Shown here: piece after piece, positions 41,383 through 46,637 of the stretch
How positions within the stretch are numbered: the first letter of the stretch is position 1
Layout of the letters: every line of letters starts with the position of its first letter
DNA from: an uncultured Gammaproteobacteria bacterium
Lineage (GTDB): Bacteria > Patescibacteriota > Microgenomatia > Daviesbacterales > UBA10151
DNA length: 64,000 nucleotides
Reading direction: 5' to 3'
Assembly: GCA_964524895.1 (NCBI GenBank)
Contig: CAZGFG010000005.1
Span: 5,976 to 69,975, forward strand
Notes under the pieces: model-generated
The model's input: the letters and a program-made list of their open reading frames with translations, nothing else
What the model was told of the DNA's origin: nothing
Database searches by the model: none
Made by a program: the position numbers and the translations under genes

Positions 41383-41793
41383 TCAGCGGACCCGGTGGCG
41401 CCGTTTAATCCTAAGTTGTGCCAGAGATTTTTCCAAAACAGCTAAAGTTTCCGCATACTCTTCATCGGATAATTTTTGTTCCAAAGCAGCCTCCGCTCTC
41501 TTTTTTGCTTCCTCAACAACCCTCTCATCTATGTCTGCAGCATAGGTTGCCAAATCTGTCATGACAGTTAAGACATTATCCGTCATTTGCAAAAATCCCT
41601 CCCCCACAGCCATAGATTCTACTTTATCACCTTTTTTTATCTTCAATTCACCCGGGACAAGCTTAGCCATCAAGTTGGCATGGTGGGGAAGTATCCCAAG
41701 CTCACCATCTGCAGAAGGAACTGTTACCATATTAACCTCACCACTGAAAACTTCTTTCTCCGGAGTTACAATCTTTAAATTCATCTGACTCAT
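41383..41793 (-). CDS. atpC: ATP synthase F1 epsilon subunit, separated from atpD by a 3.4-kb insertion
   Basis: MSQMNLKIVTPEKEVFSGEVNMVTVPSADGELGILPHHANLMAKL is a typical epsilon N-terminal beta-sandwich; 136 aa. Confidence 0.85.
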   Translation of the reverse strand: MSQMNLKIVTPEKEVFSGEVNMVTVPSADGELGILPHHANLMAKLVPGELKIKKGDKVESMAVGEGFLQMTDNVLTVMTDLATYAADIDERVVEEAKKRAEAALEQKLSDEEYAETLAVLEKSLAQLRIKRRHRVR

Positions 41794-41853
41794 GAAAAGT
41801 ATTATACCTTATTGGGCTTGATCAGATAAAGGAATTGTTATAATATCTGCGTC

Positions 41854-42219
41854 ATGGCACACACATGTAAGGGATTTATAGCCACCTGTATAGACTATAG
41901 ACTTCAACAATACCTGGAAGACTGGGCACGCAAACAGTTTGGTGAGAAAAATTATGACAGGGTAACTTGGGCCGGAGGAGTTCAAGATCTGGATGGAATT
42001 TTGAAACAGCTTTCAATTTCAGTCAAACTCCACCATATTAATAGAGCTGTGTTTGTAAACCATGAAGACTGCGGAGCCTATCGGGAAGCGGGGACAGAAG
42101 AAAAACATGCACAGGATTTGAAAAATGCAGCTGCAGAAGTTAAAAAACAGTTTCCAAATCTGTCTGTAGAAACCTATTATCTTAAGCTTGACGGCACCTT
42201 CCAACCTATTTCTTCCTAG
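41854..42219 (+). CDS. Small beta-carbonic-anhydrase-like protein (121 aa)
   Basis: Contains CIDYR (CxDxR) and HEDCGA (HxxCG) at the spacing expected for beta-CA zinc ligands, but is ~80 aa shorter than canonical beta-CAs. Confidence 0.4.
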   Translation: MAHTCKGFIATCIDYRLQQYLEDWARKQFGEKNYDRVTWAGGVQDLDGILKQLSISVKLHHINRAVFVNHEDCGAYREAGTEEKHAQDLKNAAAEVKKQFPNLSVETYYLKLDGTFQPISS

Positions 42220-42894
42220 ATCCTTACCTGTTTCTGCCTATTTATTTTGATTTTATCTTAAATTCCTGCTAAAATATGCATTCAAAATCGCATTAAAAAA
42301 TTATGACAGTTTTAGAACTAGAAAGACCAGTAGTTATAGAGGGACAGAGGCCTGACAGGGTGGGGCTGCCACACGCTGCAAATCCTTTCCCTGGTGCTCC
42401 CAGGACCAAGTTTGTTGATATAATACACCCTCAAACCAGAAGAGAGTTGTGTATATCTCAACACCATCAACCCCTTGTACCTAGTGATCCGGATTATCTG
42501 CAAAGCTGCATGGATAGCCCTTGCTTGGAAACAGCCAAACCCTATAACCCAAATAGCTCCTCTTGATACAACCAGTTCATAGATTGTATCTTGAAATTCT
42601 CCTTTTAAAGGTGCAGATTAGACATTGGAATGAATGAAATAAAAAAATTGAAGGGGATATTTTGGAAATTGCCACAAAACACAGATTGAAGAGGAAAAAG
42701 GAGGCTCCACAAAAATTGGGAGAGATTTTAGATGAAGGAGAATCTTGGTATAAGCTTAAACCTACCAAAATAGAATTAATCTATGAACCAAAATGGGGAT
42801 TTACCAAACAAATCCTTAACCTGAAACCTTGACATCAAAACTACGCTACCCTATAGTTTGATTTCCAGTTATAATATTGCTACAATCATAAGTT

Positions 42895-43395
42895 ATGGGC
42901 CTAGAGATTAGAACTACACCAGATCCAATATTATTCATCCGACAAGATCCAGTCACCGCAGAACAATTGGCTTCTGATAAGGTGCAGAAATTAATAGGAG
43001 ATATGGTAGACTTTGTTATAGATTATTCTGGAATAGTAGGACTCGCGGCAAATCAAGTAGGCTACAATTTAAGAATTATAGTTGCCTATTCAGGTGAGTT
43101 TGATTTTACAGCTTTTATAAATCCGGAAATTATTGAAAGATCGAGTTTGCTTAGAGCAGATTTTGAAGGGTGCTTAAGTCTACCTGGCCAACGGCTCTTG
43201 ATCCCCAGACCTGAAGCTATAGTTCTTAGAGCACTAGACAGAGACGGAAGATTGGTTGAAGGTAGATACCGGGATTTCCCTGCAAGAGTCATCCAACATG
43301 AGACAGATCACATAAATGGAATTTTGATCAGTCAACGTGTAGTGAATCCAAGATTACAATTTGCAGAGGATTTAACCCTAAGCTTGCCTTCTTAA
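42895..43395 (+). CDS. def: Peptide deformylase
   Basis: All three PDF motifs: GLAANQVG, EGCLS, QHETDH. Confidence 0.9.
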   Translation: MGLEIRTTPDPILFIRQDPVTAEQLASDKVQKLIGDMVDFVIDYSGIVGLAANQVGYNLRIIVAYSGEFDFTAFINPEIIERSSLLRADFEGCLSLPGQRLLIPRPEAIVLRALDRDGRLVEGRYRDFPARVIQHETDHINGILISQRVVNPRLQFAEDLTLSLPS

Positions 43396-43487
43396 AATCC
43401 TCTTGCTTCCCATCTTACAAAAGTGCAAATTCCGAATGCTGCACTGCGCAAAGGTATAGATTCCTTTTCCTCTGGTTACAACAACTC

Positions 43488-44102: not shown

Positions 44103-44115
44103 TCGCTATAGCGAT
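44102..44115. promoter_or_regulatory. 14-nt perfect palindrome ATCGCTATAGCGAT at the 3' end of the PaaX-like gene
   Basis: Second copy of the dyad (see 43488). The flanking 36-nt imperfect direct repeats (43401-43436 and 44138-44173, ~72% identity, shared core AAAAGTGCA) bracket the gene. Confidence 0.35.
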
Positions 44116-44230
44116 TTAATGTACAAATAAGTTCTAACCTTGCTTCTCCTTTTCCAAAAGTGCAGACTCGAAAGTTAACAGCTATCTAAAGCTTCCCAAC
44201 TAAAACAAATAAATCCAAGCCGTTTAAAAA

Positions 44231-45250
44231 CTATATTACAGCAGGTGCATAAGCCACAATAACATCAATTATCCCTTCTTGATCCTTAATCGCTTTTATA
44301 AAATCGGTTGGAACATGGTCTCTGCTATAAACGAACACGAGAATCCCGTCAAATTTATCCTTGTTATTTTTAAGATAAGAGGGTATATCTGCTAATATCT
44401 CTTCCTGAATTCTTGGTAGCTCTTTCTTTGAAGGCACAAATTTATTTTCTATAAAAATTTTTATGCTGGGTATCGCAAAATCTGGTTTAGGGTTTTTTAC
44501 TCCAAAACGACTTAAATATTCTTCGTCCACAAGATCTGGGTACATTGGCTTTAATATTTTGTAAACATCAGCCCTTACTCCATCCTCATCTTTAATTGGA
44601 TCCTTATCATATTTTTTATAATCATTAAATCGCCTTAATGTATCTTTTATATCTATTTGGTTTGTCGGCAAGGTATTCAGAGGTTGCTTCTTTAAACTGG
44701 TTGCAACAATTGTCTCTAATTCCTTTGTTGTTTTTTCTTGAATACGGTCCAGCAATTCCGAAAGATTTTTTTTACTGATGGTATGAGTTTCATAGACTGC
44801 CACTCCACCAGGACTGGCAATTTGGTTACCTATAAAAACGGCAGATCCTTCTGCCAAACACGATTCTATTTTTGGAACGCCCATATACAGGTTATAAGCT
44901 TCGAAAGTACTAGAGGTTAACTTACCTTTGTTAGCTGTGTAGTAATCTGTTGGTAAACTACGGCTGTATGTATAAGATAAAACTGCTTCAACAATACGAT
45001 ATGGGGGTAACTGATCATTGGAACTGTATCCACTGATTTCTTTATCGATCCACTCGACCACCTCTTCTATTTCAACCATTTTTGCAACTAATCTTGCCCT
45101 CCTTAAAATTGTTAGGGTAGAAGATTGCCGTGTGTAAATCTCCTGCAATAGCTCAACAGCACGAGTATATACTTCCACATCAACTTGAGAATCTGGCATA
45201 CTCGGAATATACCGCTTTATGCGTTTTTTGGCAATTGGCACGAATATCAA
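44231..45250 (-). CDS. Hypothetical protein (339 aa) with C-terminal PD-(D/E)xK-like nuclease motif, immediately downstream of atpD in atpC's usual position
   Basis: C-terminal ...NPKPDFAIPSIKIFIENKF... gives PD-x11-ExK, consistent with a restriction-endonuclease-like fold; the N-terminal ~230 aa are unrecognised. The 10-nt gap after the atpD stop implies co-transcription with the atp operon. Confidence 0.35.
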   Translation of the reverse strand: MIFVPIAKKRIKRYIPSMPDSQVDVEVYTRAVELLQEIYTRQSSTLTILRRARLVAKMVEIEEVVEWIDKEISGYSSNDQLPPYRIVEAVLSYTYSRSLPTDYYTANKGKLTSSTFEAYNLYMGVPKIESCLAEGSAVFIGNQIASPGGVAVYETHTISKKNLSELLDRIQEKTTKELETIVATSLKKQPLNTLPTNQIDIKDTLRRFNDYKKYDKDPIKDEDGVRADVYKILKPMYPDLVDEEYLSRFGVKNPKPDFAIPSIKIFIENKFVPSKKELPRIQEEILADIPSYLKNNKDKFDGILVFVYSRDHVPTDFIKAIKDQEGIIDVIVAYAPAVI

Positions 45251-45260
45251 ATAGAGAATA

Positions 45261-46637
45261 TTATTTCAAATCTTCTGGGCCGCCGATCATATAGAAGGCT
45301 GTTTCATTCTTACTATCGTGTTTGCCTTCCAAAATTTCCTTAAACATTTTAATAGTTTCCTTCACAGGCACATATTTTCCTTTTCTGCCGGTAAAGGCTT
45401 CGCCAACAAAGAATGGCTGGGTTAAGGCCCTCTGGATCTTCCTGGCCCGGGAAACTGTTAATTTATCCTCATCAGATAATTCTTCCATCCCCAAAATAGC
45501 AATAATATCCTGCAAATCCTTATATCTTTGCAAAACCCTTAAAACTTCTTGAGCCACATCATAATGTTCCTGCCCCACTATTTCAGGTGTCAGAGCTCGG
45601 GAAGATGAAGATAGCGGATCAACAGCAGGAAAAAGAGCCTGTTCAGCTAAAGATCTCTCCAAGGCAATTGTTGAATCCAAATGGGCAAAGGTGGTAGCTG
45701 GGGCCGGATCTGTGTAATCATCAGCCGGAACATAAACCGCCTGGACCGAGGTGATAGAGCCTTTTTGAGTGGAGGTAATCCTCTCCTGCAGCTGTCCCAT
45801 CTCGGTAGCCAAAGTTGGCTGATATCCTACAGCAGAAGGGATACGCCCAAGTAGAGCAGAGACCTCGGAACCTGCCTGGGAAAACCTAAAAATGTTGTCA
45901 ATAAACAGCAGAACATCCTTGCCTTCTTCATCCCGAAAATATTCGGCCATAGTTAGCCCGGAAAGCCCAACTCTTTGCCTGGCTCCAGGGGGTTCATTCA
46001 TCTGACCAAACACCATGGCAGTTTTATCTATGACTCCGGATTGTTGCATTTCTTGGTATAAATCATTTCCTTCACGACTTCTCTCCCCAACTCCGGTAAA
46101 AACAGAATACCCTCCGTGCTCGGCAGCAATATTTCGGATCAGTTCTTGAATTAAAACAGTCTTGCCAACCCCGGCACCTCCGAATAACCCAACTTTTCCT
46201 CCCTTAATAAACGGAGCCAAAAGATCTATGACTTTGATGCCGGTTTCAAAAACTTCGGATTTGGTGGATTGATCTTCAAAAGAAGGGGAGGGTCTGTGAA
46301 TAGGAAGCCTTTTTTTAGTTTTGACCGCGCCTTTTCGGTCAACCGGTTCCCCTAAAACATTAAAAATCCTACCCAAAACTTCCGGGCCAACCGGAACAGA
46401 GATTGGAGCACCGGTATCAACTACTTCGGTACCTCTTTTTAATCCATCGGTTGGCCCCATAGCCACTGCCCGAACAGCCCCTTCACCTAAATGGGCTTGG
46501 ACCTCGGCAATTAGAGAATGATCCCCCGTCAGAATCTCAACCGCGTTATAAATTGCCGGCAATTTATCTTCGGAAAATTGTAAATCGACCACCGGACCAA
46601 TAACCTGAAGGACTTTACCTGTGTTTGTTTTTCCCAT
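45261..46637 (-). CDS. atpD: ATP synthase F1 beta subunit
   Basis: P-loop [16 protein letters not shown]-type motifs, highly conserved throughout. Confidence 0.95.

Follow-up and report, generated by a model that had tools for sequence, protein, structure and literature searches.

Why does the gene for the ATP synthase epsilon subunit stand apart from its operon in this bacterium, and what is the nuclease-like gene that lies in its usual place? The question is raised by a 64,000-nt stretch of contig CAZGFG010000005.1 (assembly GCA_964524895.1), referred to here as the window, whose host is a Daviesbacteria-related member of the Microgenomates (candidate phyla radiation, CPR/Patescibacteria). 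According to its open reading frames (ORFs) and their Pfam and NCBIfam matches, the operon atpBEFHAGD on the minus strand is followed by a 339-aa ORF on the same strand, then on the plus strand by a PaaX/Cas2-like gene, the peptide deformylase gene def, a 675-nt spacer, and the carbonic-anhydrase-like gene Pro_CA_2, and only then by atpC on the minus strand (Table 1). A first-pass annotation of the sequence had described both the contiguity of atpB-E-F-H-A-G-D and the separation of atpC by three opposite-strand genes, and gene calls, Pfam matches, and coordinates agree with that description. In answer to the question, we propose that the gene downstream of atpD probably encodes a stand-alone, single-protein abortive-infection or defense effector, not an ATP-synthase factor, and that it occupies a variable slot within what appears to be an ancestral split between atpD and atpC. 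Our confidence is high for the comparative-genomic part of this proposal and moderate for the function of the nuclease.

The atpD-atpC split is shared with the closest relatives

The atpD stop codon ends at 45261 and the atpC start codon is at 41793, leaving a gap of 3467 nt, and the canonical atpBEFHAGDC order, with atpC directly after atpD, is absent from the window. There, atpC is a separate transcription unit and is intact (TIGR01216, 118 bits against a cut-off of 67). We compared this arrangement with loci collected around AtpD relatives from genomes and AtpC relatives from metagenomes, within which atpD, atpC, and the slot genes were located. The gap is at most 200 nt in 94 of the 104 other contigs that carry both genes, with a median of about 52 nt among contigs whose AtpC is less than 65% identical to that of the window. 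Gaps wider than 1 kb (1.26 to 6.8 kb) occur in seven of the 104 (L119, L003, L086, L121, L004, L005, and L089), and these are exactly the closest relatives of the window by AtpC identity (65 to 82%). An additional split genome is Microgenomates Gr01-1014_7 (L126), whereas in the next lineages out the two genes are contiguous (Woykebacteria L006, AtpC 55% identical; L091, 46%). Because wide gaps are confined to the closest relatives, the split is a shared, ancestral feature of one Daviesbacteria-related clade. An otherwise very conserved atpD-atpC linkage has thus been stably broken in one CPR clade. In the literature, we found no paper on Daviesbacteria together with ATP synthase.

The borders of the variable region can be drawn by comparison with the closest relative (L119/L120; AtpD 91%, AtpC 82%, and Pro_CA_2 75% identical). 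L119 is collinear with the window on both sides, with pheS, pheT, a PBP gene, atpC, and Pro_CA_2, then atpD to atpB. Nucleotide homology ends at 42206, the end of Pro_CA_2, and resumes at 45251, 10 nt past the atpD stop, covering 45251 to 49083. These breaks place a variable slot at approximately 42207 to 45250, with the atpD 3′ end as one of its borders.

The first-pass annotation had described atpC as displaced by an insert. The gene does lie apart from its operon, but this insert is not the cause, since the split is present with other cargo in all of the closest relatives. It had also proposed comparing synteny among relatives, and had held that an ancestral arrangement would speak against an insertion. 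For part of the arrangement an ancestral state is what we find: the split and the Pro_CA_2/atpC pair recur among the relatives, whereas none of the relatives examined has the nuclease gene, the PaaX-like gene, or def in its slot. The locus thus appears best described as an ancestral split, a recurrent divergent Pro_CA_2/atpC pair, and a fast-turnover cargo slot, rather than as a single 3.4-kb insertion, which corrects the easy misreading that a recent insertion displaced atpC.

The junction carries different cargo in different genomes

The genes found between atpD and Pro_CA_2 or atpC vary from one relative to the next. In L119, the gap holds a CDCA-like gene (between atpC and Pro_CA_2), a 99-aa ORF, a DUF7387 gene, and a 234-aa ORF. 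Elsewhere, it holds a Y1 (IS200-type) transposase and a 77-aa ORF (L121); a 157-aa ORF and a ParE/YoeB-like toxin with a putative antitoxin (L005); a coiled-coil 122-aa protein and a glyoxalase-like protein (L003); MFS and GIY-YIG genes, an IS30-like HTH_38 plus rve transposase, and the same 122-aa protein as in L003 (L084); a 180-aa ORF, a retropepsin-like protease, and a split EamA gene (L086); a membrane protein, TatD, and a Mur-ligase-type (FolC-like) gene (L089); five unannotated genes (L126); and, in the largest gap (L004, 9441 to 16193, 6.8 kb), a methyltransferase and six proteins without Pfam matches. When 50 slot ORFs from 10 genomes were compared all against all, Pro_CA_2 alone was widely shared, and two other proteins were each common to one pair of genomes. 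Two of the L004 proteins (507 and 544 aa, with C-I-D-G-R motifs) were considered as giant carbonic-anhydrase-like proteins and rejected on an hhalign probability of approximately 1% against Pro_CA_2.

These observations led us to consider how such a slot could arise. In the ancestor of the clade, atpC would have been uncoupled from atpBEFHAGD and become a transcription unit of its own, with little or no leader, back to back with Pro_CA_2. This uncoupling would have created a junction at which the 3′ ends of Pro_CA_2 and atpD converge, and, because insertions between convergent 3′ ends hit no promoter, the junction may be a permissive, fast-turnover slot. Each genome would then have come to hold different cargo; in the window, this is def, a core PaaX/Cas2-fold regulator, the 675-nt spacer, and the AbiTii plus PD-(D/E)xK nuclease gene. 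We also compared the base composition of the cargo with that of the window ORFs, the earlier annotation having advised a comparison with the flanks. Relative to the 55 ORFs of the window, the z scores for GC and GC3 are −0.85 and −1.14 for the nuclease gene, −1.70 and −1.10 for the PaaX-like gene, and 0.15 and −1.36 for def. A foreign base composition was rejected on these values, which lie within the spread of the window ORFs and give no sign of recent foreign origin. The slot may be useful as a marker for strain-level comparison and for finding mobile or defense cargo in these genomes.

The gene downstream of atpD joins an AbiTii domain to a nuclease domain

The 339-aa ORF encodes two domains, both of which exceed their Pfam gathering scores. 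An AbiTii domain (PF18864, 58.4 bits against 27.6) spans residues 33 to 147, and the PADLOC model for AbiTii (PDLC02334) matches with an E value of 1.8e-17. The AbiTii signature WIDKE-x-GY ... PxYR ... IES is kept, including its conserved glutamate, and residues E71 (in WIDKE), G74, P82, R85, and E129 are invariant in nine AbiTii-domain proteins (alignment A5). The second domain, REase_DpnII-MboI (PF18742, 66.5 bits against 27), spans residues 207 to 336 and matches positions 19 to 149 of a 150-position profile. Three PADLOC Aga_Helical-REase models also match (best E = 1.4e-25), over only their last ~120 to 125 positions (query residues 215 to 338), and NCBIfam gave no match for this ORF. The catalytic motif, E222 ... 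P256-D257-x10-E268-N-K270, is intact; in alignment A1, E222 and E268 do not vary, and conservation of D257 and K270 is at least 90%. The protein had been called nuclease-like and possibly Abi-like from the letters alone; the Pfam and PADLOC matches bear out both calls, and the proposed PD-x11-ExK motif holds except for its spacing, which is x10.

By sequence, the sole solved relative is EcbAgaN (PDB 23wq; phmmer E = 4e-7, residues 219 to 328). An AF2 model of the protein has a mean pLDDT of 74.7 and a C-terminal domain at approximately 86, where the means of 10-residue blocks are mostly 80 to 93 with a dip to 62 to 73. The best Foldseek match in the PDB is the R.BspD6I small subunit (probability 0.98, E = 0.025), followed by EcoO109I, McrC, Bse634I, Card1, and Can2.

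Proteins with this full architecture are rare. One full-length homologue was found in a search of 5.8 billion sequences (P0002, 49% identity), and an exhaustive scan of 1.84 billion representatives yielded two at E < 1e-30 (P0015, 51%; P0016, 42%), whereas the nuclease domain alone occurs in a few hundred proteins and the AbiTii domain alone in a handful. The homologues also inform the start codon. Their alignments begin at query residue ~18 to 24, and the first residue of P0002 corresponds to M18. ATG 45199 is thus a likelier start than TTG 45250; it makes the protein 322 aa long and lies 61 nt after the atpD stop. The first-pass description of a 339-aa protein 10 nt after the atpD stop thus keeps its position directly downstream of atpD, and loses its start, since TTG 45250 marks only the longest ORF.

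The gene is predicted to act without conserved partners. The three full-length homologues whose context is known (L083, L117, and L118) lie in unrelated, non-atp contexts with no conserved neighbor. There is no PADLOC AbiTi match among the neighbors scanned, and none is conserved beside these homologues. By the ORF list and Pfam, no Argonaute-sized ORF lies in or beside the slot. Nor does the slot contain a DNA methyltransferase; the nearest methyltransferase gene (40347 to 40928) encodes an MTS/RsmC-type small-domain enzyme according to Pfam. The PaaX-like gene was considered as a required partner of the nuclease and rejected because it is absent beside all three homologues. A phage or plasmid origin was likewise rejected: tblastn, an IMG/VR scan, and PHROGs revealed no phage relative of the nuclease gene, and its plasmid matches are domain-level only, covering at most 36% of the query. 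Fold matches in BFVD are generic PD-(D/E)xK proteins.

Promoter-like sites suggest that the nuclease gene is transcribed independently

The spacing of promoter elements across the window bears on how the nuclease gene is expressed. A Shine-Dalgarno-like motif precedes only 9 of the 55 window ORFs. In 19 of the 55, a TATAAT-like −10 box ends 6 to 9 nt before the start codon, most often at 6 nt, and the 6- to 9-nt bin contains 20 boxes against 2.7 per equivalent upstream bin (~7-fold over background). This pattern is consistent with leaderless transcription in this genome. The nuclease gene has a promoter-like site with its −10 box 6 nt before ATG 45199 (Table 1), which gives independent support for that start. 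Most likely, then, the gene would be transcribed from its own leaderless-type promoter, and read-through from atpD would not be required. Co-transcription with the atp operon, which the first-pass annotation had asserted, is not shown by these data; the gene's own −10 box stands at a spacing typical of the genome. The boxes are consensus matches and not mapped transcription starts, and independent transcription is the simpler reading of them. Similar boxes precede atpB, atpC, Pro_CA_2, and def (Table 1); that of atpC (TAAGGTATAATAC) recurs approximately 95 nt upstream of tRNA-Tyr (repeat D10).

The nuclease is probably a single-protein defense effector

In the reading we favor, the AbiTii domain would be a sensor or autoinhibitory module, as proposed for AbiTii-HEPN fusions. 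A phage-derived cue would release the C-terminal domain, a predicted divalent-metal-dependent DNase from the same domain family as bAgaN, which would degrade DNA indiscriminately, so that the infected cell dies. Two bodies of published work inform this model. Fusions of AbiTii to nuclease effectors are well established: Anantharaman et al. (2013) described the domain at the N terminus of HEPN nucleases and proposed that N-terminal modules of this kind contact phage components, leaving suicide to be carried out by the C-terminal nuclease (PMC3710099). The DNase bAgaN is dimeric, depends on Mn2+, and has a D-EVK motif; it causes collateral DNA degradation once its long-B Argonaute partner detects an invader, resulting in abortive infection (PMC10620215).

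Several points weigh against this reading. The AbiTii Pfam match covers only profile positions 5 to 117 of 189. The AF2 model is of moderate quality (pTM 0.46, from a 14-sequence alignment), and no Foldseek match in the PDB reaches E ≤ 0.001; the fold evidence therefore backs the sequence evidence but cannot stand alone. The mechanism of lactococcal AbiT is itself still unknown (PMC13064643), and defense by any AbiTii-REase fusion is a prediction. Between atpD and the nuclease gene, the promoter and terminator scan found no terminator-like site, making read-through from the atp operon possible. With regard to the slot, the clade is sampled by approximately 10 genomes, base composition neither supports nor excludes transfer of the cargo, and the slot of the window contains no integrase, transposase, or att-like site. 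One defense-like gene lies there beside two ordinary genes, and "defense island" would overstate the case.

The main rival explanation is a solitary restriction-type endonuclease (Type IV/modification-dependent or orphan Type II) that cuts phage DNA directly, without suicide, and uses its AbiTii-like N terminus to recognize DNA or a DNA modification. We consider it unlikely, although it accounts for a good part of the data: the C-terminal domain belongs to a Pfam family named for DpnII and MboI, the nearest solved folds include the true restriction enzymes R.BspD6I, EcoO109I, Bse634I, and McrC, and the lack of a conserved partner beside the homologues is what a stand-alone Type IV enzyme would show. 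However, no DNA methyltransferase is adjacent, the one nearby being of the MTS/RsmC type; Argonaute-associated abortive-infection nucleases, not characterized restriction enzymes, give the strongest profile and PDB matches; and AbiTii is known from Abi proteins and is not recognized as a DNA-binding module.

A selfish or decaying passenger (an addiction-type toxin or an inactive remnant) with no host function, in a slot that is a neutral dumping ground, would be in keeping with the extreme rarity of the architecture, with the orphan ORF and 675 nt of unexplained DNA alongside, and with the toxin-antitoxin genes and transposases in the same slot of other genomes. Yet the ORF is intact, and the catalytic and AbiTii signature residues are all kept in comparison with homologues only 39 to 51% identical, which argues for purifying selection. 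The identical gene also recurs in several samples, and its promoter-like site stands at a genome-typical spacing. We therefore regard a passenger as improbable.

The alternative raised by the first-pass annotation, a new ATP-synthase-associated factor in the normal position of atpC and co-expressed with the operon, could appeal to the fact that the gene follows atpD immediately on the same strand and that no terminator is predicted between the two. It is hard to credit, since the gene is absent from all ~10 related split atp loci and its three homologues with known context lie outside atp loci; its domains belong to conflict systems, it has its own promoter-like site, and an intact atpC lies 3.4 kb away. 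Finally, a chimera of assembly or binning, joining unrelated contigs between atpD and atpC, can be set aside with near certainty, because independently assembled contigs from other runs (L001, SRR4343435; L002, SRR12113424 and others) carry the same order from atpG/atpD to atpC with identical proteins, and the flanks of the window are syntenic with L119 at both ends.

CPR bacteria have tiny genomes and few characterized defense systems, to which an AbiTii-DNase fusion of the kind we favor would add a rare single-gene candidate.

A PaaX-like core regulator lies between predicted operators

The 185-aa protein encoded next to the nuclease gene matches PF20803 (PaaX_M) with 77 bits and consists of an N-terminal hydrophobic segment, a winged helix, and a Cas2-like PaaX_M domain. 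We found 301 homologues at E ≤ 0.001, the best 120 of which are 60 to 73% identical, ~185 aa long, and mostly from Daviesbacteria and Levybacteria. Three orthologue loci (L123, L124, and L125) lie in three different housekeeping neighborhoods. Some database records name the family "CRISPR-associated endonuclease Cas2," a label for which the gene context offers no support: no cas or paa family occurs among the Pfam families given for neighbors in the window and in L123 to L125, in a comparison that did not specifically scan for CRISPR arrays. In the profile searches, TIGR02277 (PaaX) scored 32.3 bits against an equivalog cut-off of 264.55, and TIGR01573 (Cas2) scored 29.2 bits against a cut-off of 24.5 while covering only positions 2 to 41 of 96, short of a full-length match. 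Neither "Cas2" nor "PaaX" is thus a supported name for the gene, which is a core regulator, conserved in Daviesbacteria and Levybacteria, whose location in the slot is incidental.

The gene is bracketed by two palindromes (Table 1). In all four genomes (the window and L123 to L125), the pattern TACAA-N5/6-(C/A)GCTATAGC(G/T)-N5/6-TTGTA occurs approximately 30 to 100 nt upstream of the start codon, with a copy over the stop codon, and the stop-codon palindrome has 15 invariant columns across the four (alignment A4). The palindrome core TCGCTATAGCG has 4 matches in the window against 0.33 expected, and the half-site pattern has 4 against 0.06 expected, found only at the two palindromes; the strict pattern occurs nowhere else in 125 fetched loci. 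Insertion scars or the terminal repeats of a mobile cassette were considered and rejected as an explanation, because the palindromes accompany a core gene (60 to 73% identity) in four different contexts. Operators are accordingly preferred, and we predict that the palindromes form an operator pair for autoregulation of the PaaX-like gene, a pair that the gene would have brought with it into the slot. Mobilization of the palindrome-flanked gene in trans is a residual alternative.

Outside the palindromes, the gene is also bracketed by a direct repeat (D1), whose pattern is unique in the window, with 2 matches against 0 expected. By eye, D1 was not seen in the flanks of L123 to L125, and it could be an old target duplication or a recombination scar. 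Of the regulator with a winged helix and Cas2 fold, palindromes, and 36-nt direct repeats that the earlier annotation had described, the fold and the palindromes hold, and the repeat is 31 nt at 81% identity.

Pro_CA_2 recurs beside atpC

The 121-aa product of Pro_CA_2 scores 64.6 bits against PF20393 (cut-off 30) and stays below the cut-off of canonical Pro_CA (16.7 bits against 25.7). Residues C12, D14, R16, H70, and C73, which correspond to the Cys-His-Cys zinc ligands and Asp-Arg dyad of beta-carbonic anhydrases, are invariant in 26 homologues, and there is a weak match to the beta-carbonic anhydrase Cab (1g5c, E = 0.0046). The solved beta-class carbonic anhydrases and relatives that it matches are 166 to 219 aa long. 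We therefore predict a mini beta-carbonic-anhydrase-like protein, as the first reading of the sequence had suggested; the zinc ligands are kept. Pro_CA_2 faces atpC in most clade members, adjoining it in L003, L005, L084, L086, L087, L121, and L126 and lying one gene away in L119.

In L084, the copy beside atpC seems disrupted (3929 to 4226): what is left is a 71-aa C-terminal ORF, the N-terminal part being encoded in a different frame, and an IS30-like transposase is found 0.7 kb from it. In L119, Pro_CA_2 and the CDCA-like gene between it and atpC occupy 9228 to 9899 and 10001 to 10432, and the CDCA-like gene scores 27.5 bits, just under the CDCA cut-off of 29.2. In a Roizmanbacteria genome (L122, 10001 to 11065), Pro_CA_2 is followed directly by a CDCA-like gene (cadmium/zeta carbonic-anhydrase repeat), and the neighborhood lacks atp genes. 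The two genes may form a two-gene carbonic-anhydrase-like module.

A more ambitious reading would join these features. The uncoupling of atpC and its pairing with Pro_CA_2 would be functional, with the epsilon subunit and a CO2/bicarbonate-handling or -sensing protein co-controlled from one divergent leaderless promoter region of 13 to 95 nt; the convergent junction would be a preferred landing site for mobile and defense genes, and the level of the AbiTii-DNase might track atp read-through. We regard this as a long shot. If true, ATP-synthase regulation would be linked to inorganic carbon or pH in these bacteria, which are fermentative and host-dependent.

def, the spacer, and the outer flanks

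The def gene is intact, as first annotated (PF01327, 132 bits; TIGR00079, 107.8 bits against a cut-off of 103.95), and its translation contains the motifs GLAANQ, EGCLS, and HETDH. The adjoining spacer had been taken for a 660-nt GC-rich non-coding stretch; it is 675 nt long, and its GC content of 0.373 is below the window mean of 0.395, only the part occupied by the orphan ORF orf87 reaching 0.46. Gene predictions in public collections include orf87 as a protein, in a singleton cluster, and searches found no homologue, Pfam match, or PHROG match for it. A structured RNA was rejected, since Rfam gave no match to the spacer under either its gathering or an E-value threshold and neither strand folds better than shuffled sequence (z = +1.4 and +0.8). 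A pseudogene of the relatives' cargo was rejected as well, as tblastx and blastn found no similarity in loci L003 to L125 or in phage and plasmid collections. The promoter-like site at the right end of the spacer probably serves def, and the rest is possibly a decayed remnant.

On the other side of atpC, a NUDIX gene (39465 to 39965) has the lowest GC content among the window ORFs (0.297, z = −2.6). Its neighbors are the PBP gene on one side and the MTS methyltransferase/tRNA-Tyr genes on the other. Nucleotide comparison revealed no L119 counterpart of this stretch, and the tRNA-Tyr segment has the opposite orientation in L119; this flank of atpC has therefore also been rearranged. Within the operon, AtpA contains a Gly/Ser/Ala-rich stretch and is 518 aa long, compared with 503 aa for its L119 orthologue, which may reflect a lineage-specific insertion near the nucleotide-binding domain.

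Table 1. Coordinates of genes, domains, and predicted sites around the atpD-atpC junction of the window
Feature	Position	Strand	Basis or remark
atpB box TACAAT	7 nt before ATG at 51144	-	Read from sequence
atpB	50404-51144	-	Pfam ATP-synt_A, above gathering score
atpE	50175-50447	-	Pfam ATP-synt_C, above gathering score
atpF	49495-49995	-	Pfam ATP-synt_B, above gathering score
atpH	49100-49498	-	Pfam OSCP, above gathering score
atpA	47557-49113	-	Pfam ATP-synt_ab, above gathering score
atpG	46669-47553	-	Pfam ATP-synt (gamma), above gathering score
atpD, beta subunit, last gene of contiguous operon	45261-46637	-	Pfam ATP-synt_ab, 250.8 bits
Nuclease promoter-like site TTGCCA-17-TATATT	45206-45234	-	Promoter scan, 10/12 matches; −10 (45206-45211) ends 6 nt before ATG 45199
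339-aa ORF (longest form; likely gene, 322 aa, 44231-45199)	44231-45250	-	ORF list, Pfam, PADLOC
AbiTii N-terminal domain, predicted sensor/regulatory module	44810-45154	-	PF18864
PD-(D/E)xK nuclease domain, predicted effector	44243-44632	-	PF18742
Direct repeat D1, copy b	44139-44169	+	Repeat search; 81% identical to copy a
Downstream palindrome	44093-44124		Inverted repeat I7; overlaps PaaX-like stop codon; second predicted operator copy
PaaX_M/Cas2-like gene, 185 aa	43545-44102	+	PF20803
Upstream palindrome TACAA-N-CGCTATAGCG-N-TTGT(A)	43477-43509		Inverted repeats I1, I2; overlaps −35 of PaaX-like promoter-like site; predicted operator
Direct repeat D1, copy a, 31 nt	43402-43432	+	Repeat search
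def, peptide deformylase	42895-43395	+	PF01327, TIGR00079
def box TACAAT	42881-42886	+	8 nt before ATG
def promoter-like site TTGACA-17-TATAGT	42829-42857	+	Promoter scan; best site of region
Spacer, 675 nt	42220-42894		Between Pro_CA_2 and def
orf87, 87-codon orphan ORF in spacer	42303-42566	+	Proline-rich, GC 0.46
Pro_CA_2, 121 aa	41854-42219	+	PF20393
Pro_CA_2 box TGTTATAAT	41836-41844	+	9 nt before ATG
Divergent atpC/Pro_CA_2 promoter region, 60 nt	41794-41853		Read from sequence
atpC box TATAAT (GGTATAAT)	41801-41806	-	7 nt before ATG
atpC, epsilon subunit	41383-41793	-	PF02823, PF00401, TIGR01216

Comparison with known systems

Variable defense and integration hot spots between conserved core genes are known from Enterobacteria, Pseudomonas, and Vibrio. 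The slot described here resembles them in having conserved flanks, namely atpD at one end and Pro_CA_2-atpC at the opposite end, and genome-specific cargo that includes toxin-antitoxin genes, transposases, and an Abi-like nuclease. It differs in lying inside a normally single essential operon, in its small size (1.26 to 6.8 kb), in also holding housekeeping genes (def, the Mur-ligase-type FolC-like gene, and TatD), and in that no integrase or att site was identified. The regulator in the slot shares with PaaX, the repressor of the phenylacetate catabolon, and with Cas2 a winged-helix region followed by a Cas2-like PaaX_M domain, and its flanking palindromes are of the kind used by dimeric repressors. 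Unlike PaaX, it is 185 aa long against a 279-position profile, begins with a hydrophobic segment, and has no paa genes nearby in four genomes.

The nuclease can be set beside three known systems. With DpnII and MboI, it shares the PF18742 nuclease family, nearly the whole profile being matched, but it has no cognate Dam-type methyltransferase, carries an additional AbiTii domain, and is not part of a restriction-modification operon. Its nuclease domain is homologous to that of bAgaN of the BPAN system (Song et al., 2023; PMC10620215), with the same D...E-x-K motif and common structural neighbors, since R.BspD6I, Card1, and Can2 have also been reported for bAgaN (PMC10620215). Here, however, AbiTii replaces the helical N-terminal domain of bAgaN, and, with no Argonaute gene adjacent, activation cannot be guide-RNA-directed. 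The closest parallel in architecture is offered by lactococcal AbiT and the AbiTii fusions, in which an AbiTii N-terminal module likewise precedes a C-terminal effector that cleaves nucleic acid. The effector of the published fusions is a HEPN RNase (c2405 and Ymh families), whereas here it is a PD-(D/E)xK DNase-type domain; and, in contrast to lactococcal AbiT, there is no AbiTi-like partner, the host is a CPR bacterium and not a Firmicute, and the gene is chromosomal and not plasmid-borne. The protein would thus extend the "sensor plus effector" AbiTii family from HEPN RNases to PD-(D/E)xK DNases. The logic of the AbiTii domain is known, and current understanding is not overturned; what is new is the combination with this effector, at an unusual locus and in a CPR host.

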